Sequence record: MH675927.1
DNA: 64,000 nt
Origin: Escherichia phage vB_vPM_PD114
Strand: one strand, 5' to 3'
Below, piece after piece: positions 3,240 to 62,066 of the stretch. The position numbers were made by a program, and so were the translations under genes. A model generated the notes under the pieces. That model was not told the DNA's origin and made no database searches. It saw nothing but the letters and a program-made list of their open reading frames with translations. How positions within the stretch are numbered: position 1 is the stretch's first letter; the number at the start of each line of letters is the position of its first letter.

Positions 3240-3464
3240 ATGGTAAAACGTCTGGAATGGGATGCGTGTACTGTTCACGCTTGTCACTGCGATATTGTGG
3301 AAGATCCTAATGGAGAAATGGTGTATTATGAAGATTACGAAGCATTGCACAATGCTGTGATTGCTTTGCTGGATGATATTAGCTCACGCTACCCAGGACA
3401 ACAGTTTACGTGTCCACATATTCAACTGTTAGCCAAACTTACGGAGTATCCAAGTGTTCCATAA
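3240..3464 (+). CDS. hypothetical Cys/His-rich protein (paralog of 8606..8869)
   Basis: track ORF; SD aggaggg; shares CDIV.DP.G..V...DY motif with 8606..8869. Confidence 0.6.
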   Translation: MVKRLEWDACTVHACHCDIVEDPNGEMVYYEDYEALHNAVIALLDDISSRYPGQQFTCPHIQLLAKLTEYPSVP

Positions 3465-3465
3465 T

Positions 3466-3633
3466 ATGGGTGTCCCTGAACAACTACTCTTTATTGTAGG
3501 ACTAGTAGGCTTATTGGCGGCTGGAGCTAAAGCCGCTTCTCACACGCGTCACATAATGTTAAGATTTCTATTCCTGCTCCCTTCTATCCTCGTACTACTA
3601 GTCATACTGATCGATAACATTTTTCACAATTAA
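3466..3633 (+). CDS. small hydrophobic protein (55 aa)
   Basis: ORF filling gap 3465-3642; strongly hydrophobic; no clear SD. Confidence 0.3.
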   Translation: MGVPEQLLFIVGLVGLLAAGAKAASHTRHIMLRFLFLLPSILVLLVILIDNIFHN

Positions 3634-3642
3634 GGAGAGGTC

Positions 3643-4227
3643 ATGAGTAAAATTATACCAAGCAGTTATGAATTATTGCAGTTTTATGTATATTATATAG
3701 ACTGGGTTACTAGATCGAATGTTAAAGACAATGCGATGTTTAGTAAAAATATCTGTTTAACGGAAAGTATCTTCCGTTATTGGCACACAGGCAGAAAGTG
3801 TACACACAGTGAAGCTATGCGCATTGTAGGAGAATATCTGGAGCAATTACAAAAAGCAGAACTTCCTGTCCTTCACCCATTCAACGAATCTAAAGAAGAA
3901 TTAGAACAAGAGTGTAGAGAAGGTAAGTGCCATTTGAATGAAAAACGTATTGAATGGGTAAGGCAACGTTTAGCCGATGCAGGAAAGACTCCTAGTGACT
4001 CTGACTATACGTGGTACGATGTAGAGGGTTTAGTTCAAGGTTTTGAGGCTTGTGCTATAGATAATACCAACTTTGCCAAAGTTTTATGCGAGGTTTATGA
4101 TCTGGCAGATAAAATCCGAAATCAAGGATGGAAACAAGAGCATAAAGAATCATATGAACGTCTTGACAAGATTTTCAAACAGATCTATTCTAACCACAAA
4201 GAGATGTTCCAAATGGAGGATGTGTAA
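3643..4227 (+). CDS. hypothetical protein (paralog of 2365..2733)
   Basis: track ORF; SD taaggagagg. Confidence 0.6.
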   Translation: MSKIIPSSYELLQFYVYYIDWVTRSNVKDNAMFSKNICLTESIFRYWHTGRKCTHSEAMRIVGEYLEQLQKAELPVLHPFNESKEELEQECREGKCHLNEKRIEWVRQRLADAGKTPSDSDYTWYDVEGLVQGFEACAIDNTNFAKVLCEVYDLADKIRNQGWKQEHKESYERLDKIFKQIYSNHKEMFQMEDV

Positions 4228-4910
4228 TGAAAGAGACTATGTTTGAAGGTCATCGTTACGAAGTTCCAGACAATGCAAATTTTATGGCTCGTGATATCAC
4301 TGGAGATGTGTTCTGGTTTGAAGATGAACCTGTGTTTTCGAACAAACATTGGTTTTCACAACAATCTTCTTCTGAAAATATGACTTTTGGCTACGTAGAA
4401 CCTAAAGTCCGTTGCAGAGCAGCTTCTTCTTTGGTAAAAATTTCCCAAGATAATGAAGAAAATACTCCAGATGTTGTTAGTGCACTACTGAAGTACATTG
4501 CAGAACTTGAGAAGAAAATTAAAGAAGCAGAAACTAAGGTGAAAGCACGATCAGCAATCATTGAAGCTATGTCTGAACGTATTTTAGAACTAGAAGATTT
4601 GTGTGGAGAGGCTTATCAAGTGGTTGGTGCACTGGCTTGTGAAGCACAAATGTTTGAAACTTCAGAGCAAGTTTCACATATGTTAGATAATTTGAGTGAA
4701 TGTAAAATGATTCATGATGATGTATTGCCATTCTGTTGCAATGTTAACAAAACAGAGCAAACAGAAGATTCAGAAACAGTTTATGTTCCGCTAATGTGTG
4801 TTCCAGATCATCTAAAAGGTGTATTCTCTTGCAAATGGTCACTGTTGAGCGTTACTAATTGTGGTGAAAACTATTCTGCTAACATTGAATTGCTAAAACA
4901 CGTTAAATAA
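4227..4910 (+). CDS. hypothetical protein
   Basis: track ORF; TAATG overlap with upstream gene. Confidence 0.55.
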   Translation: MKETMFEGHRYEVPDNANFMARDITGDVFWFEDEPVFSNKHWFSQQSSSENMTFGYVEPKVRCRAASSLVKISQDNEENTPDVVSALLKYIAELEKKIKEAETKVKARSAIIEAMSERILELEDLCGEAYQVVGALACEAQMFETSEQVSHMLDNLSECKMIHDDVLPFCCNVNKTEQTEDSETVYVPLMCVPDHLKGVFSCKWSLLSVTNCGENYSANIELLKHVK

Positions 4911-17938: not shown

Positions 17939-18684
17939 TAGTCCTCCTCTAAAGTAGAATAAAATTGTAACGTATTTGAATCATCAAAATATGCAAAGGT
18001 TAAATTACCATTGAACACAGACCCAGTATCCATATATACCCTATTACTGCTAATTACAGGTTTAGGAACATAAGAATGCCCGTGAAATACATAATCTACT
18101 CCTGAAACTCTAGGAAGAAGAATCCCTTCAAGTGCGCAATCTATCATATCACGATCCCACATTAAAGATTCTGTGAATCGAGAAACTTGCTCTTTATCCA
18201 TATTCAAACAAAATGGCAAAACTTCTGTCACTGGTAAATGTTCCAAAACTGAAGGATATCCACCGTGAATAAAGCCTAGTTTCATATTACGATAATTGAC
18301 AACAAGTACAACAGGTAAGTCTTCTAGCATCAAAGCAAGAGCAGTTGCACCTTCTTCTCCACACTCGTTTAGAACTGTATGGCCTCCGTTCTGAAACCAA
18401 CATTCGTAATATCGCCTATCACCTTCTAGCAACCCTTTAATCATCATATCTTCGTGATTTCCACGAATAGCATAGCGATTTAGTTTTCTGGTGAATTCAA
18501 CGGTACAACGAAAATTCTGCTTGCCGCGATCTGTAAGATCTCCTAAAGATACAACAACATCTTGATCTCGGATACCTAAAGTATTAACACCTTTCTGGTA
18601 TAAATCAAAGCAACCATGTAAATCACCAATAATAAACAGGTCTTGATCATCTTTTACACTAATTTCTTGATATACTAGCATCAA
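17938..18684 (-). CDS. Ser/Thr protein phosphatase (PPP, calcineurin-like)
   Basis: GDLHG, GDLTDRG and RGNHE metal-binding motifs in canonical order. Confidence 0.8.
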   Translation of the reverse strand: MMLVYQEISVKDDQDLFIIGDLHGCFDLYQKGVNTLGIRDQDVVVSLGDLTDRGKQNFRCTVEFTRKLNRYAIRGNHEDMMIKGLLEGDRRYYECWFQNGGHTVLNECGEEGATALALMLEDLPVVLVVNYRNMKLGFIHGGYPSVLEHLPVTEVLPFCLNMDKEQVSRFTESLMWDRDMIDCALEGILLPRVSGVDYVFHGHSYVPKPVISSNRVYMDTGSVFNGNLTFAYFDDSNTLQFYSTLEED

Positions 18685-19007
18685 CTCTCCTCAAAATCCA
18701 TAAGTATAAAGATATTAACTTTACCTTCTATATTATGTTCTACAACAAGATCTGCAAATTCTTTGTAGGCTTTTTCTTCTATTTGTTCAATGTGAGACGC
18801 TACATCTTTATATATAGCGTCACCATCTACTTTAACAAGGAGGAATAGAGATCTTACCTCAATCTCTTTATTTTTGCGGGGTAGAAAATCGACGGCTTCT
18901 TGTATACGCCAGCCGAGATACCCTGGAGTCCTTTGAATATCCTCCAAATGACTTTCTAAGATTTCCCTTCCTTTGTCTATTAAAGCCTGTTCTGTCGTTA
19001 TTTTCAT
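18681..19007 (-). CDS. hypothetical protein
   Basis: track ORF; SD taaggagaagggg. Confidence 0.55.
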   Translation of the reverse strand: MKITTEQALIDKGREILESHLEDIQRTPGYLGWRIQEAVDFLPRKNKEIEVRSLFLLVKVDGDAIYKDVASHIEQIEEKAYKEFADLVVEHNIEGKVNIFILMDFEES

Positions 19008-19017
19008 CCCCTTCTCC

Positions 19018-19590
19018 TTAATGTGTTAATGAAACTGCGTAACTAAACACAGGTTCAGATATTACATCGGCTACAGTAATAAAAACGTCCTCATCTTGCG
19101 TTGTTTCTACACGACATACAGTTACACCATTTACTACAAATTCAACGCAATGTGGAATATCTTCACAAACGAATGTAGTGTAAGTAACACCCAAAGCATC
19201 ATACAAAGATTTAACAGTATTTGCAAGTGCCGCAGTTTCTTCTTTTTCTGAGACAATGAATGCTGTAACAACAAGATTGTTTGCATAGTTTAGACTGTCC
19301 TCTATAGCCAATGATTTACAAGGTAGTAATGCAAAATATTTACCTGGTTTAATCAGACCTGCTTCCCATTGATTCAAAATTGCCTGGGATGGTTTAGTAA
19401 TATAAAACAGATTTTCACTTGGGTTATCAATATTACTTCTGGCGATACAACGTGAAGGATTATTAATATCGAACACATGATCAAAATCTACACAAACTGG
19501 TAAACTGAAAGGTGTAAATTTTTTACCTAATAATCCTACTGCTGACAATATGTTTGCTGTGCTTATCTTCCCGTTAAAAGCTAAACGCAT
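19018..19590 (-). CDS. hypothetical protein
   Basis: track ORF; SD aaaggag. Confidence 0.55.
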   Translation of the reverse strand: MRLAFNGKISTANILSAVGLLGKKFTPFSLPVCVDFDHVFDINNPSRCIARSNIDNPSENLFYITKPSQAILNQWEAGLIKPGKYFALLPCKSLAIEDSLNYANNLVVTAFIVSEKEETAALANTVKSLYDALGVTYTTFVCEDIPHCVEFVVNGVTVCRVETTQDEDVFITVADVISEPVFSYAVSLTH

Positions 19591-21948: not shown

Positions 21949-22602
21949 TTAATTATCAGAGGATACTTTATCAAGTTTTTCAGAGACTGTCAATACTTTT
22001 TCTTGTGATTCTTTCATTTCTGCTAAAATACTTTCAGCTTCATCACTATCAGGATCACCAGTCAACAGCATACTAATTAGTTGCTCCTTGCTGAAGTTCA
22101 GAATATCTTCCGCTGTTAGCTCCAGTTGTTCTTCGATCTCTTCAACAAAAGTTTCACCGCCTGAAAAAGCATCTCGTAGTTTTGCAACTTCCATCGCTTC
22201 TTCTGGGGTTGCCCCAGCGTCTAAAGCTGCTAAAGCAAAATCTGCCCCACTACCAACAGCATAGTAATCTTCAGTTAAAGGATATGCTCGCGTTGGATTA
22301 TTACCCTCGTGCATATAAATTTTACCGTCTGGGTGAACAACCAATGCCACAAACTCTTCATCTTCTTTATCAGGGTCTGATTGGATCACCAAACCTGGGA
22401 TTGTCTCTTGTGCTGCCTGGCACTGTAAGTTTTGTTCAAACCAAGAAAAGAAAGTCAGGATAGAAGACAGACGTCCTGCACCACCAACAAGGTAATCCCC
22501 AATTTTACGCACTTTCTTGAAATTTAAAGTGTCTACTCGATTACCTACTGTTACTTTACCGTCAGATAGAATTTTGTTATGTGTTGCAATAATTGTTGTC
22601 AT
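21949..22602 (-). CDS. HslV/proteasome beta-like Ntn-hydrolase peptidase
   Basis: N-terminal MTTIIA (Thr directly after initiator Met), GGAG and AVGSGA motifs as in HslV. Confidence 0.55.
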   Translation of the reverse strand: MTTIIATHNKILSDGKVTVGNRVDTLNFKKVRKIGDYLVGGAGRLSSILTFFSWFEQNLQCQAAQETIPGLVIQSDPDKEDEEFVALVVHPDGKIYMHEGNNPTRAYPLTEDYYAVGSGADFALAALDAGATPEEAMEVAKLRDAFSGGETFVEEIEEQLELTAEDILNFSKEQLISMLLTGDPDSDEAESILAEMKESQEKVLTVSEKLDKVSSDN

Positions 22603-23093
22603 TGTACTTCCTCCTGTAGTGTTTTAAGGACTGCTTTACCACCGCTTACATACTTACGTAGGTAATCAATAGCTCTTAGTGTTTCTTTATCCACAAGAAT
22701 TTTATTGGTTCTTGTTAGTGGATGATTTAGTAAATCACTGCAATTTCTTACTAACATAGATTTCTTGTGAAAGATACTGCTAAGAAAAAGAAGTTTAGAA
22801 TCTTCTTCATCAATCAGGAGTAATTCTGAATTAGACCCAGCTACATTTATTATACACTCAAACAAGCCTTCTTGACTATCAGATAATTCCTGGTAATATT
22901 TAGTTAGCCAATCCTCTCCTTTTAACCAACTAAAAAACATCTGAACTTTTTGCAAAGTTGTCATGTTCTCTAAACGAAGAGATATTTCTTTTTCAATCTT
23001 GTCAATATAAATCTGTCTAAACTCATTCGGCTTAACTAAGCCAGCTTGATAGCATTCATCAATACCATTGCGATCAATCTCAATTAGCGTCAT
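22599..23093 (-). CDS. hypothetical protein
   Basis: track ORF; SD tggagg. Confidence 0.55.
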   Translation of the reverse strand: MTLIEIDRNGIDECYQAGLVKPNEFRQIYIDKIEKEISLRLENMTTLQKVQMFFSWLKGEDWLTKYYQELSDSQEGLFECIINVAGSNSELLLIDEEDSKLLFLSSIFHKKSMLVRNCSDLLNHPLTRTNKILVDKETLRAIDYLRKYVSGGKAVLKTLQEEVQ

Positions 23094-23129
23094 TTAACCT
23101 CCATAATAGGCATCCTTGCCTTGTAATTA

Positions 23130-23882
23130 TTAATATACTTCCGTGATGAACTGAGACAAACGGGAACGTTGGTTATCAGCAGTTGTCATTTCAACATAAC
23201 CAATAAAATCTACAATAGCTTCCCTTTCTCCTTCTTCGTTAATAGGAACAACACGATCTAACAAATCACCTAACCCGTTAGCTCTTCGTTTAATTGCATA
23301 TGTTTGATTAACATCGCCCATAATGACAATACGTGTATTAAGACCTGCTCGCTCAAGGAGAAGTTTTACTGTGTTTGGTGACATAAGTTGAACTTCATCA
23401 ATAAGAATAATGCTGTTATCCCACGTAGCACCTAGTGCATAGTTCGGAATATTAAGTTCAATTTTGCCACTTGCAATATCGTTTTCCAATTTATTTGCAG
23501 TCATAAACTGTTGGAAAATTCGTTTAGTTGATTCGTAGTGTGCTGCTAGTTTATCAGTCTTATCTCCAGATAAGAAACCGATTTGGTCATCACCTACTTC
23601 TGTCGGGTTTTTAAGGAAAATCAACTTTCTGAAGTCACCAGCTTTAAGCATTTGTAATGCTTTCCATAGTGCTGTTGTCGTTTTTCCTGTTCCTGCTGGG
23701 GCATTAACAATGGTTAAATCATTCCAAACCATGCTTCTTACAATAGCTTCTTGATTCCCAACAGGGGTAAATTCATCAAGACGGTAATCATCATTTCCTA
23801 CTGCTTTAGCCGCATAACGACTGGCACGTTTGTCATCATTGGCTGCTGATTGACGACGAGCCTTTGCGGTTTTATTTCCCAT
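23130..23882 (-). CDS. phoH: PhoH-like ATPase
   Basis: Walker A APAGTGKTT, Walker B ILIDEVQ. Confidence 0.8.
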   Translation of the reverse strand: MGNKTAKARRQSAANDDKRASRYAAKAVGNDDYRLDEFTPVGNQEAIVRSMVWNDLTIVNAPAGTGKTTTALWKALQMLKAGDFRKLIFLKNPTEVGDDQIGFLSGDKTDKLAAHYESTKRIFQQFMTANKLENDIASGKIELNIPNYALGATWDNSIILIDEVQLMSPNTVKLLLERAGLNTRIVIMGDVNQTYAIKRRANGLGDLLDRVVPINEEGEREAIVDFIGYVEMTTADNQRSRLSQFITEVY

Positions 23883-34014: not shown

Positions 34015-34986
34015 TCACCATTTTGTATGGTTAGTCAAAAGTTGACGATGTTGAATCCAACCACAGAAGTTTCCACTCCATAAACGATGTTTACGATCCA
34101 TATGTGTAATACCTTCTTCCCAAGAAGTAGGGAACGGAGGAATATTAATACCACCTTTCTGTTGTTTTAATCCTGACAAATCCATTTCTTTCATTGGTGT
34201 TGCCTGGTGTTCAAACGGGGATGCATGTACCTTTTGTCCAGACAGCAAACGAGAATAGATATCCAATGCTTTATCTTTAGTATCATTCAACTTACGATAA
34301 CTTACCTGAGCGCAACAAGAAGCTGAAATAGCTTTTGCTTCATCTTCTGTCAACATTTTCTCGTTGGAGAAGGTTTCACCCAAGAAATAACGGATCATAC
34401 CAGTTTCTGGATCTCGATCACGATTAACGTAAGGTGTATGCCATTCTCCTGGGAAAAGAAGATATGGTTCAGAAGATTCATACAGTTTTTTAATTTCTTT
34501 AGCAAGAGCCTCAATAGTAGGATCTGCATCAGCATCTACGCGCAACCACAAGAAGTTTTCTAGCTCTGTAGTGGTTACTACAGTCTTCATACGCTGAAAT
34601 GGTTCTAGTAGTCGGTTTGCAACCTGTTTATGATAACCAGCAAGGGCAAACTCTTCTGCAAAACGTGCAGCACTTAGCGCAGCCAAGTCCCACCATTCTT
34701 TTGCAGTATAACCTGCATCAATCAGGGCATCGTGATCTGTGCCTTTATCTTGCATACCTGGTTGGTTAGCACCAAAGCGATAAGGACGTGCTGGAGATTG
34801 CCGTACCATTTCAATTAGAGTTTTAACAGGGATAGCTCGACTTGATGCGGCATTACGAGAAAACAAACGATGCGTCATCAATTCAGAGTGAATGATTCGA
34901 GGATATTCAAGTTCAAAGGTAACAATATCCTTACCTTCGGATGTTTGAGAGTGTGCAATAATTTTTGCTGAAATAGAATTTGTCAT
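34015..34986 (-). CDS. thyX: flavin-dependent thymidylate synthase
   Basis: ThyX signature MTHRLFSRNAASSRAIP (RHR...S). Confidence 0.8.
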   Translation of the reverse strand: MTNSISAKIIAHSQTSEGKDIVTFELEYPRIIHSELMTHRLFSRNAASSRAIPVKTLIEMVRQSPARPYRFGANQPGMQDKGTDHDALIDAGYTAKEWWDLAALSAARFAEEFALAGYHKQVANRLLEPFQRMKTVVTTTELENFLWLRVDADADPTIEALAKEIKKLYESSEPYLLFPGEWHTPYVNRDRDPETGMIRYFLGETFSNEKMLTEDEAKAISASCCAQVSYRKLNDTKDKALDIYSRLLSGQKVHASPFEHQATPMKEMDLSGLKQQKGGINIPPFPTSWEEGITHMDRKHRLWSGNFCGWIQHRQLLTNHTKW

Positions 34987-34995
34987 TATTTCTCC

Positions 34996-35586
34996 TTAAG
35001 GTAGTAAAATACTTTCAATTTCTTCCCACTGATTATCTAAACCAGTGATAATTACATTAGGAAGTTTCTTTAACTCTTCCAAATATGGATCTTCGTAAAT
35101 AGTGTTGAAATATATTTTCAACGTTTCATCTGGAAACAGGACAAGATTTTCAGCCCTATCGTCAATAGTTACATCGCAAGGTAATAAGTATTTTTCTTTT
35201 GTTGCGAAAAAACCATTACCAGATGTTCTACTAAAATCCACTTTATCTAAAGATCGTGTTACGTGTCTATATTTAGAACTAAGGTGTCCACCCTTAGTGT
35301 GGCTTGCTATAGATATATTAGCTCCATTTGCAATTATACGATGAACAACATCTGTACTATTAGGTACTACTCCCATAGTATCATATAGATGTTGGTTATC
35401 CCAAAAAGAGTAAGGATCTACACCAAATTGCTTTTTAAAATCAGGGAAATATTTCGTAATATCATAGTGCACAGTTTTATGTGTCTTATCAAATTTGATA
35501 TTAGATCTACTTACCGCATTTAACCAATTTAACCATTCTATATCCGCTGGAGCTATTACTAAATCCCAATCACATACTAGACGCAT
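34996..35586 (-). CDS. putative HAD-family 5'-nucleotidase
   Basis: DWD (DxD) near trimmed N-terminus and IDDR near C-terminus; track ORF 34996..35700 trimmed to ATG after aggagaa. Confidence 0.4.
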   Translation of the reverse strand: MRLVCDWDLVIAPADIEWLNWLNAVSRSNIKFDKTHKTVHYDITKYFPDFKKQFGVDPYSFWDNQHLYDTMGVVPNSTDVVHRIIANGANISIASHTKGGHLSSKYRHVTRSLDKVDFSRTSGNGFFATKEKYLLPCDVTIDDRAENLVLFPDETLKIYFNTIYEDPYLEELKKLPNVIITGLDNQWEEIESILLP

Positions 35587-59921: not shown

Positions 59922-61490
59922 GTGTCTACAGGTAAGCGTAAGTACACTAAAAGATCGGATTACTGGAACAAAGGCTCAACTGAAAAAGCTGCACTGTCTC
60001 CAACACAAAGTGCAACTAAAGAGAAGAACTTGGTACTTTCACCAGAAATAGGTACTATTGGTCTTAATTCGATTAAAGCCTTTACGAACTTCATGCAACC
60101 GTATGAAACTCGCTTCCCAGAAAACATCCGAACATACAAAGAAATGGGAGAAGACCCTGACGTAGCTACTGCTCTTGATGCTACGTATATCTTTGTAGAT
60201 AGAGCATTCTTTGATTTTAAAATAAAATACAATGTTAGTTCAGCTAAGTCAAGACGTGCTGCAAAGTTTGTAGACTACACACTTCGCAACATGAATGCAC
60301 CACTAAGACAGTATGTACGCTCCTTGCTAACATATAAGCAATTTGGGTTTGCATTTGCAGAAAAGGTGTATGAACTTGATGAAGATCCAAAAAGCCCGTA
60401 TTTTGGTTATTACCGTCTTGTTAAATTGGCGTTTAGACCCCAGGATACAATTGATTTGGCACAACCTTTCACCTATTCTGATGACGGTCGCACTATTCTT
60501 ACGGTAAACCAAAACATTACTAATGCAATGGTAAGCCCCGGTACTAACGCAACTCTGATAGGAAGAAAAGAAATTCCTATGGAGAAAGTTATTTACGTAG
60601 GGAGCAACATTACAGAGAATAATCCATTAGGTGTAAGCCCACTTCTTGCAGTATATAGAAGTTGGCGTGAAAAATCTCTGATTCAAGAATACGAAGTTGT
60701 TGGTGTTTCGAAAGACTTAGGCGGTATGCCAGTGTTGATGGTTCCAAGTGATATTCTCAACAGGGCATCACTAAACCCAAGCGGGGATGAAGCACAATCT
60801 TTACGTGTTCTGCAAGCAAATATCGCTAACTTACACGCAGGTGAACAATCTTATATGGTGTTACCTTCTGATGTTTATGAAGGTACTGTTATGCGCCAGT
60901 ATGATCTTGTATTCCAAGGTGTTGAGGGTAGTGGTAAGCAATTCGATACACAGGCTCTAATAAAACAACGTAAATTAGATATCTACAACAGATTTGGTGC
61001 AGGTGTTCTGATTATGGGTGATGGAGAAGGTGGTAGTTACTCTTTGTCAGATAACAAACAAACCCTTCTTTCACATTTTATTGAGCGTGATGTAGATATT
61101 ATTACAGAAGCACTAAATACTCAAGTAATTCCCCAACTTCTACGTTTGAACGGTATTTTCTTATCTCAAGAAGATATGCCTAAATTTGTTAGTGACGATA
61201 TTGGTGATCCTGATATTGAAGTTAATGCTAAGGCAATCCAACAAATCGTAGCTGCTGGTGCAATACCATTAACGCCAGAAGTAATTAATGAATTCTTCGA
61301 ACGTTTAGGTTTCAATTATAGAATACCTGATGATATTGTTGCTGATCCAGATAAGTTCCAAGAGTTCCTTGAGACTTTTATGCCAGATAAGACTTCAAGA
61401 TCTGGTGATGGTTTAGCGGCTGGTGCTGGTAATGGAACGTCAACATCTCCTGCTGCATTAGATACATCGGCAGCAAATTTGGCAAATTAA
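59922..61490 (+). CDS. portal protein (candidate)
   Basis: 522-aa ORF directly downstream of terL; alternative start after ggagg; no motif recognised, assignment by position and size. Confidence 0.5.
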   Translation: MSTGKRKYTKRSDYWNKGSTEKAALSPTQSATKEKNLVLSPEIGTIGLNSIKAFTNFMQPYETRFPENIRTYKEMGEDPDVATALDATYIFVDRAFFDFKIKYNVSSAKSRRAAKFVDYTLRNMNAPLRQYVRSLLTYKQFGFAFAEKVYELDEDPKSPYFGYYRLVKLAFRPQDTIDLAQPFTYSDDGRTILTVNQNITNAMVSPGTNATLIGRKEIPMEKVIYVGSNITENNPLGVSPLLAVYRSWREKSLIQEYEVVGVSKDLGGMPVLMVPSDILNRASLNPSGDEAQSLRVLQANIANLHAGEQSYMVLPSDVYEGTVMRQYDLVFQGVEGSGKQFDTQALIKQRKLDIYNRFGAGVLIMGDGEGGSYSLSDNKQTLLSHFIERDVDIITEALNTQVIPQLLRLNGIFLSQEDMPKFVSDDIGDPDIEVNAKAIQQIVAAGAIPLTPEVINEFFERLGFNYRIPDDIVADPDKFQEFLETFMPDKTSRSGDGLAAGAGNGTSTSPAALDTSAANLAN

Positions 61491-61550: not shown

Positions 61551-61586
61551 AAGATTTATGGGATATTTGTTTTTATGAGGAACCGT

Positions 61587-62066
61587 ATGGAACTTAATAA
61601 AGACACGCTTTGGGAACTCTATAAAACGTTCAGTGGAACGAAAGAGAAAAAGCAAACCCAACAAAATTCCACTCCAGAAGAAACACCTGCTACTATCGTC
61701 AAACAAAATAAATTTGACGAAGAAAAAATGCAAGTGATTGAAGTGATGTATTGTCCACCAGAACACGATGACCTCCACGGTGAACGTATGTCTGAAATTG
61801 AAATCAGAAAGATGGTTGACAACTTCAACGCAAATATTACTAACGTAAGTGGTAATCTTGGTCATATCAAAAACACCGATAAATTTAAACCAGTTAAGGC
61901 TTGGGTTAATGAAGTCGATTGTTATATTGGTGACGAGTTTGTTGTTGAAGGAACACCACTCGTTAAAATTCAATTCTATGATCCTGAACTGTATGAAGCA
62001 AGAAAGAACGGCGTTCTTAAAGGTTTAAGCATTGGTGCAGTAGGATGTAAAGTGAAGAAGGATTAA
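61587..62066 (+). CDS. head morphogenesis protein (function unassigned)
   Basis: track ORF 61575..62066 trimmed to ATG after gaggaa; between portal and scaffold-like gene. Confidence 0.5.
   Translation: MELNKDTLWELYKTFSGTKEKKQTQQNSTPEETPATIVKQNKFDEEKMQVIEVMYCPPEHDDLHGERMSEIEIRKMVDNFNANITNVSGNLGHIKNTDKFKPVKAWVNEVDCYIGDEFVVEGTPLVKIQFYDPELYEARKNGVLKGLSIGAVGCKVKKD

Follow-up and report, generated by a model that had tools for sequence, protein, structure and literature searches.

In the 64,000-nucleotide stretch of Escherichia phage vB_vPM_PD114 analysed here (sequence record MH675927.1; referred to as the window), the open reading frame (ORF) at 21949..22602 encodes a 217-aa peptidase of the proteasome/HslV superfamily of N-terminal nucleophile (Ntn) hydrolases that is not HslV proper. 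Helix H2 of HslV is missing, an acidic loop stands in its place, and the catalytic core is followed by a conserved motif and an acidic tail. We consider it rather probable that this protein is an N-terminal-threonine peptidase that acts without HslU on cytoplasmic proteins of the host or the phage, the C-terminal motif and acidic tail serving as a recruitment element. The gene belongs to a class that has been described before, the phage proteasome homologs without H2, and it adds no new kind of system. Nor is the basic identification new, since many phage entries in GenBank and RefSeq already carry the identical protein under the names 'peptidase HslV family', 'HslV family peptidase', 'putative 20S proteasome' or 'putative proteasome component'. 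An initial annotation, made from the sequence alone, had proposed an HslV/proteasome-like peptidase that was unlikely to be the prohead protease and that might pair with a host HslU-type ATPase to redirect proteolysis. The family assignment and the doubt about a prohead role stand, but the pairing with HslU does not. The ORF was also correctly placed; its strand, left unstated, is minus.

The resemblance to the proteasome and HslV is far above chance. PHROG 1040, 'peptidase HslV family', matched residues 1-212 with an E value of 1.5e-62. The Pfam profile Proteasome (PF00227) scored 24.4 bits, with a gathering score of 22.4, and also matched 18 of the 21 diverse family members scanned. In a phmmer search of all sequences in the Protein Data Bank (PDB), the top match was HslV from T. 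maritima (1m4y, E value 2.4e-7), accompanied by a dozen further HslV entries, and 20S beta5 subunits ranked after the HslV entries. An AlphaFold2 (AF2) model of the single chain, built from 21 homologs, has a mean predicted local distance difference test (pLDDT) score of 82.7, with most core blocks at 80-98, and contains the alpha-beta-beta-alpha sandwich. Foldseek matched this model to HslV, to the bacterial HslV relative BPH and to archaeal and eukaryotic 20S beta subunits, all with a probability of 1.00 and E values of about 1e-8 to 1e-9; the BPH matches, which are among the top ones, have TM scores of 0.45-0.53 and are weaker than those to HslV. The Pfam, PHROG and PDB matches and the predicted fold thus confirm the proposed family. 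Of the checks suggested at the outset, structure prediction gave a model that matches the HslV/proteasome beta fold, and the profile search was positive for Proteasome but negative for the HslV equivalog models in NCBIfam (TIGR03692/NF003964; 34.5 bits versus 137 and 32.2 versus 157.75).

To compare the catalytic residues, E. coli HslV was aligned with the window peptidase and 223 relatives (131 long-form and 92 more distant sequences); residues in E. coli HslV numbering are prefixed Ec. EcThr1, EcThr2, EcAsp17, EcLys33, EcGly48, EcSer124 and EcGly125 correspond to T2, T3, D14, K30, G43, S118 and G119 of the phage protein, and these positions are kept in about 96-100 % of the 131 long and 92 distant sequences. 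The translation opens with MTTIIA, as initially reported, and there is no propeptide. The MTT start aligns with EcThr1 and is kept in 126 of the 131 long forms, the remaining five lacking that alignment column. Both blocks that had been likened to HslV are there too, as GGAG (residues 40-43) and AVGSGA (residues 115-120). The first (G40-G41-A42-G43) is the oxyanion loop and G117-S118-G119, in the second, corresponds to the EcSer124 loop; both are invariant or nearly so. Methionine aminopeptidase accepts threonine at position 2, and from this specificity the threonine nucleophile is expected to be exposed by removal of the initiator methionine. The initial annotation had named the lack of an Ntn-hydrolase profile match, or a predicted fold without the N-terminal-threonine active-site geometry, as findings that would speak against it; neither was found, because the profile match and the N-terminal-threonine catalytic set are both present. 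Conservation of this set suggests that the peptidase is catalytically active.

The region that follows helix H1 differs from HslV. In the model, H1 comprises residues 45-67 and is followed by a 17-residue coil up to the strand at residues 85-89, where HslV has helix H2. The columns of EcAla79, EcLys80, EcArg86 and EcLeu88 are gapped in the window peptidase and in 130 of the 131 long forms. Residues 62-84, which include the acidic loop (...SDPDKEDEEF), have a net charge of -6, and the family median is also -6. The position aligned to EcLys28 is Q, S, D, N or T in the family and is never basic among the common residues. The alignment also shows that, relative to HslV, about 11 residues have been inserted ahead of the GSG strand and 9 residues deleted between H3 and H4. 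In HslV, the pocket for the C-terminal tail of HslU involves Phe54 and Phe57 in H1, Ala79 and Lys80 in H2, and Gln114 (PMC6429459), and a cluster in H2, Arg86/Arg89/Lys90, lines the pore, is required for activity and rearranges upon HslU binding (PMC5777263). BPH (PDB 5ovs, 5ovt and 5ovu), which is descended from HslV, has likewise lost the HslU-interface residues, has acidic residues in a pore loop in place of the basic pore cluster of HslV, lacks a propeptide and has no known partner unfoldase or other partner ATPase (PMC5777263). The phage family shows the same set of changes in a more extreme form, since H2 is wholly gone. BPH differs from it in retaining H2, in its elongated pore loop and heptameric double rings, in its location in the chromosome of Betaproteobacteria and in having neither the C-terminal motif nor the tail.

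These differences bear directly on whether the peptidase docks on the HslU hexamer of the host, in place of or in competition with the host's own HslV, and so redirects ATP-dependent proteolysis. HslV is its nearest solved relative in both sequence and fold, and the H1 positions aligned to EcPhe54, EcPhe57 and EcPhe60 stay hydrophobic (L, F and F). The E. coli host carries HslU, and the annotation of the near-identical phage PHB05 (147.7 kb) includes no HslU- or ClpX-like gene. However, H2 has been deleted family-wide together with EcAla79/EcLys80 and the HslU-responsive EcArg86/EcArg89/EcLys90 cluster (PMC6429459, PMC5777263), the EcLys28 position is not basic, and the HslV equivalog cut-offs were missed by about 100 bits. 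The family also occurs in Vibrio, Aeromonas and Shewanella phages, its core is far more conserved than any HslU-facing surface, and in BPH loss of the HslU interface goes with HslU independence (PMC5777263). Because H2, the tail-pocket contacts and the basic pore cluster have been lost and an acidic loop is found instead, we regard pairing with host HslU as improbable. As judged from the lost docking features and from an acidic loop like that of BPH, the peptidase most likely works independently of HslU. We note that the common label 'ATP-dependent protease subunit HslV' is misleading for a protein in which the HslU-docking features are gone.

As judged from the published descriptions, the peptidase fits the PPH type (reference sequence WP_042125023.1) and its relative RPC (reference sequence WP_140207863). 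PPH, a proteasome homolog of about 140 residues, occurs in tailed phages as well as in their hosts; RPC is related to PPH, has a C-terminal extension and is recorded in proteobacterial genomes only (Fuchs et al. 2021; Table 1, PMC8665760). Neither has the second helix H2 (PMC8665760). The lack of H2, the stated hallmark of PPH and RPC, is shared by the window peptidase, as are its place among the group-I homologs, an MTT start, no propeptide, a Thr/Asp/Lys triad and a Gly oxyanion loop. The occurrence in tailed phages is also shared, as tblastn found homologs in 166 phage records, from Escherichia, Klebsiella, Aeromonas, Vibrio and Shewanella phages. However, at 217 aa the window peptidase is longer than PPH, with a core of about 158 aa to which the conserved motif of 25 residues and the acidic tail are added, and the linker that replaces H2 (the Ec62-95 span) has 22 residues compared to a median of 11 in the short forms. 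A PPH-like core with a C-terminal extension is shared with RPC, but RPC is found in proteobacterial genomes whereas the window long form is phage-borne, and no close relative was found with the patterns used when 185,579 genomes of bacteria and archaea were scanned.

A profile search of 1.84 billion cluster representatives recovered 8243 relatives at E <= 1e-3. The 57 representatives at E <= 1e-30 are long forms of 180-350 aa, and the weaker-scoring relatives include many proteins of 138-155 aa that have an MTT start, a single helix and a short linker, and end after the last strand. None of the short H2-less forms tested reached the HslV cut-off. When aligned using hhalign, the long forms matched the short H2-less forms over residues 1-158 with an E value of 6.6e-49, compared to 6.7e-11 for E. 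coli HslV. The likeness to HslV consists of the MTT(I/V) N-terminus, predicted to be exposed by methionine removal, the catalytic residues and the nearest solved structures; the differences are the absence of H2, the addition of a 58-residue C-terminal extension and the lack of an hslU gene alongside. With the 20S beta subunits (PF00227), the peptidase shares the Ntn-hydrolase alpha-beta-beta-alpha fold and the catalytic mechanism predicted from it, but it has no propeptide, alpha-ring partner, H2 or S12/H5 elements, and its core is much smaller.

Short forms were also seen in metagenomic contigs. In L036 (1456..2687) and L037 (466..1697), a gene for a 138-aa PPH-type protein shows translational coupling to both of its neighbours, an upstream 100-aa ORF and a downstream gene for a Metallophos phosphatase, in a temperate-phage-like early region with an integrase gene. 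A NinI-like phosphatase gene lies a few kb downstream of the peptidase gene in PHB05 and in the distant metagenomic contig L013.

The C-terminal extension is a regular part of the long forms. At least 25 residues follow the core in 97 % of 90 diverse long forms, and in these the alignment occupancy does not fall below 0.91 as far as position 185. The motif consists of an acidic linker followed by L-T-x-E-x4-(F/M/L)-(S/T)-K-E-(E/Q)-L-(I/L)...G, with E173 and L175 nearly invariant, and AF2 predicts helices at residues 164-169 and 172-181 (pLDDT 71-80). An acidic extension had been noted initially and is confirmed, as the last 61 residues, from residue 157 onwards, have a net charge of -12. The family median for the extension is -15, with a median length of 96 aa (range 3-223), and some long-form relatives bear additional C-terminal domains. 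The C-termini of these homologs generally point away from the presumed rings and are possible interaction sites (Fuchs et al., PMC8665760). The conserved motif and acidic tail of the window peptidase may thus recruit substrates or a partner.

In the explanation we favour, host methionine aminopeptidase would strip Met1 and expose the Thr2 nucleophile, and Asp14, Lys30, the GGAG oxyanion loop and Ser118 would supply the rest of a classical proteasome-type active site. If HslV and BPH are a guide, the subunits would most likely form a ring-shaped self-compartmentalising particle. With an acidic loop in place of H2, this particle would act without host HslU, and the conserved motif and acidic tail would be the handle for substrates or for a phage partner. 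The peptidase would be made in the infected cell alongside the early/middle metabolic genes, and its targets would most likely be cytoplasmic proteins of the host or the phage, not capsid proteins.

Several points weigh against this explanation. The Proteasome match of the window peptidase is marginal, and the H1 positions aligned to EcPhe54, EcPhe57 and EcPhe60 have stayed hydrophobic. The argument for HslU independence is one from missing docking features. Some of the new proteasome homologs may form no rings (Fuchs et al., PMC8665760), and BPH is inert in standard peptidase assays (PMC5777263), which makes 'active protease' an assumption here. Literature searches found no biochemical, structural, proteomic or genetic study of the phage family, only annotation mentions and the 2021 bioinformatic survey. 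Virus-encoded proteasome-family peptidases are a recognised class.

Another reading is that the proteasome fold has been put to a different use, in a connectase-like transpeptidase or ligase, a non-protein amidase, or a catalytically silent binder or decoy. The proteasome-like family does include the ligase connectase and members without detectable protease activity, such as BPH (PMC8665760, PMC5777263), and the conserved C-terminal motif suggests recognition of a specific partner. However, strict conservation of the Thr/Asp/Lys/Gly/Ser set speaks against a silent binder, and the connectase signature, which is an S3-S4 insertion and loss of both H1 and H2 (PMC8665760), is absent as the window peptidase keeps H1. 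We give a use of this kind little credence.

The positions of the peptidase gene, its parts and the other genes considered are listed in Table 1.

Table 1. Features in and around the peptidase gene and in the head module (window positions)
Feature	Position	Strand	Evidence or remark
Long-form PPH-type N-terminal-threonine peptidase gene, 217 aa	21949..22602	minus	ORF list, sequence, PHROG 1040, PF00227, PDB HslV matches, AF2/Foldseek
Peptidase stop codon	21949..21951	minus	
Variable, strongly acidic tail, residues 184-217	21952..22053	minus	pLDDT 52-57
Conserved motif, residues 159-183	22054..22128	minus	Conservation in 90 diverse long forms, two predicted short helices
Catalytic core, residues 1-158	22129..22602	minus	Invariant columns, E. 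coli HslV alignment, hhalign to short H2-less forms
Acidic loop replacing HslV H2 and basic pore cluster, residues 68-84	22351..22401	minus	AF2 secondary structure, alignment gaps, charge
Thr2 codon, predicted N-terminal nucleophile after Met removal (HslV/proteasome Thr1)	22597..22599	minus	MTT conservation
Peptidase ATG	22602..22600	minus	
Shine-Dalgarno sequence AGGAGG, 7 nt 5' of ATG	22610..22615	minus	Within 3' end of upstream ORF; read from sequence
up164, 164 aa, phrog_14834, function unknown	22599..23093	minus	Translationally coupled, directly upstream of peptidase
PhoH-like P-loop ATPase, first gene of PhoH/up164/peptidase cassette	23130..23882	minus	Pfam PhoH, 123 bits
Portal gene	59922..61490		Head module
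Peptidase_S78_2/XkdF candidate prohead protease	61575..62066	plus	Pfam, 44.1 bits versus cut-off 24
Scaffold-like ORF, 371 aa	62069..63184		Head module

The 3.5 kb around the peptidase gene has an identity of at least 99 % to 15 phage records and of 95-99 % to a further 40. These records are from E. coli myoviruses of about 147 kb in the genus Justusliebigvirus (Stephanstirmvirinae), e.g. PHB05, alia and ECGD1, and the window belongs to the same genus. The gene lies in a minus-strand block with genes for ribonucleotide reductase, dTDP-sugar enzymes, glutaredoxin, lysozyme, PhoH, methyltransferases, a phosphatase and Sir2, and it shares 4 nt at its start with the end of up164, the ORF directly upstream. 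Promoter-like and terminator-like sites around it were not enriched relative to shuffled sequences, and a small hairpin past the stop codon was not significant (z = -0.98). PADLOC returned no matches for the peptidase, up164 or the downstream ORF (down142), and an assignment to defence or anti-defence was dropped.

PhoH, up164 and the peptidase form a conserved cassette, which is reported here for the first time. In a local tblastn comparison of 33 loci, they were found next to one another in all enterobacterial-type loci whose flanks were long enough. The trio persists where peptidase identity has fallen to 40-50 %; there, the lysozyme gene and down142 are gone and the methyltransferase gene has shifted by about 3.5 kb. 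In all long-form contexts with enough flank, namely E. coli, Klebsiella-type, Vibrio and Aeromonas phages and metagenomic contigs, PhoH is upstream of the peptidase on the same strand, and in contig L013 it immediately adjoins it. The Vibrio and Aeromonas versions of the cassette have no up164, and no PhoH was found near the short PPH genes in temperate-phage-like contigs. As the short forms occur without PhoH nearby, the linkage may be the inherited synteny of one large lytic myovirus lineage.

One phage record, GenBank accession number MT932211.1 (VEcB), has all three cassette genes disrupted, which is also a new observation. It is missing 1130 bp corresponding to window positions 22417..23546 (the affected locus is L038 2165..2968), and the deletion is bounded by two 8-bp direct repeats, GCAGCACA. 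PhoH residues 1 to about 114 are joined in frame to residues from about 63 to 217 of the peptidase, such that the C-terminal half of PhoH, the whole of up164, and Thr1, Asp14 and Lys30 of the peptidase are lost. The other VEcB record, OZ035773.1, is intact. If the MT932211.1 record is correct, the cassette is apparently dispensable for propagation on the isolation host, and an accessory role in interaction with the host fits better than a core morphogenetic one. The deletion and the intact sister record provide a ready-made comparison.

In all lineages examined that carry a long-form acidic-tailed peptidase, PhoH has a basic N-terminus, with a charge of +4 to +7 over its first 35 residues; the figure covers the window PhoH and L002-L005, L010, L013, L018, L022, L025, L030 and L031.

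The cassette could be read as encoding one phage machine, in which PhoH and/or up164 deliver or remodel substrates, possibly RNA-bound proteins, for the peptidase, whose acidic tail would touch the basic PhoH N-terminus. The trio lies side by side on one strand with an overlap between up164 and the peptidase, it outlasts the flanking lysozyme, down142 and methyltransferase genes, and PhoH is found upstream in the Vibrio and Aeromonas phages and metagenomic contigs and directly adjacent in L013. The opposite charges of the PhoH N-terminus and the peptidase tail recur across these lineages, and the single VEcB deletion hits all three genes. However, all PhoH-linked cases are large lytic myoviruses with wider synteny, so that the linkage may be inherited gene order, the short PPH forms elsewhere lack a nearby PhoH, and up164 does not occur in the cassettes of Vibrio and Aeromonas phages. 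Moreover, PhoH relatives are described as RNA helicase-like SF1-type ATPases and not as protein unfoldases (PMC7824862), up164 is unlike any known adaptor or activator, and the charge complementarity lacks a control set. A joint machine is thus unlikely in our view. Its most specific form, an HslU-independent, nucleotide-driven module for degradation or ribonucleoprotein remodelling in which the C-terminal motif and tail of the long-form PPH dock the partner or partners, is a long shot, but, if true, it would provide the first concrete role for phage PhoH, a widespread 'auxiliary' gene, and for a viral proteasome homolog. Functional work would be better aimed at the conserved C-terminal motif with its tail, and at PhoH and up164, which are co-transcribed with the peptidase, than at host HslU.

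The location outside the head module, on which the initial doubt about a prohead role was based, is confirmed. The head module is on the plus strand and the peptidase gene is about 37 kb from it, as measured to the portal gene. The head module also contains a separate candidate, an ORF of the XkdF type between the portal gene and the scaffold-like ORF that is 100 % identical to PHB05 gp113 over the 159 residues of gp113. In RefSeq, gp113 is labelled 'DNA methyltransferase' and a prohead protease is annotated nowhere in this phage group. From its profile match and location, this ORF is probably the real prohead protease, mis-annotated as a methyltransferase. The missing RefSeq annotation might otherwise have favoured the peptidase as the virion-maturation protease, processing prohead or internal proteins, and self-compartmentalising proteases could in principle process capsid proteins. 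However, the peptidase gene is distant, on the opposite strand and among metabolic genes, a phage record without its catalytic N-terminus exists (VEcB), and its short relatives are in early regions of temperate phages beside integrase and phosphatase genes. With a separate XkdF-type protease already in the head module, we consider a role in virion maturation highly improbable.

Two AAA ATPases of PHB05 (L008), gp184 and gp214, were considered as a dedicated unfoldase for the peptidase and rejected. Their similarity to Cdc48/p97 is weak and confined to the Walker region, inspection of the translations by eye showed no aromatic-hydrophobic-Gly pore loop, and members of the family are widespread among Enterococcus, Bacillus, Staphylococcus and Lactococcus phages without the peptidase. 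The genes are at 18223..19383 (minus) and 34148..35275 (plus) and encode paralogous classical-AAA proteins of 386 and 375 aa (phrog_2376/PF00004). The phrog_2376 family, of unknown function, is common in large phages of Gram-positive and Gram-negative hosts.

The up164 protein has invariant motifs and a confident all-alpha AF2 model (pLDDT 93.3), for which no Pfam, PDB-sequence or fold match was found. The possibility that it is a degenerate second proteasome-like (alpha-like) subunit was rejected on the basis of this model, a BLASTP E value of 0.67 and an hhalign probability of 3 %. That idea came from Aeromonas phage 4L372D (L004), where two neighbouring genes, at 3432..3983 and 4001..4885, both match phrog_1040. 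The first encodes 183 aa with the start (M)TCIIAL (phrog_1040, E value 9.6e-26) and the second a 294-aa long form that is 35 % identical to the window peptidase; the pair may represent a two-subunit arrangement.

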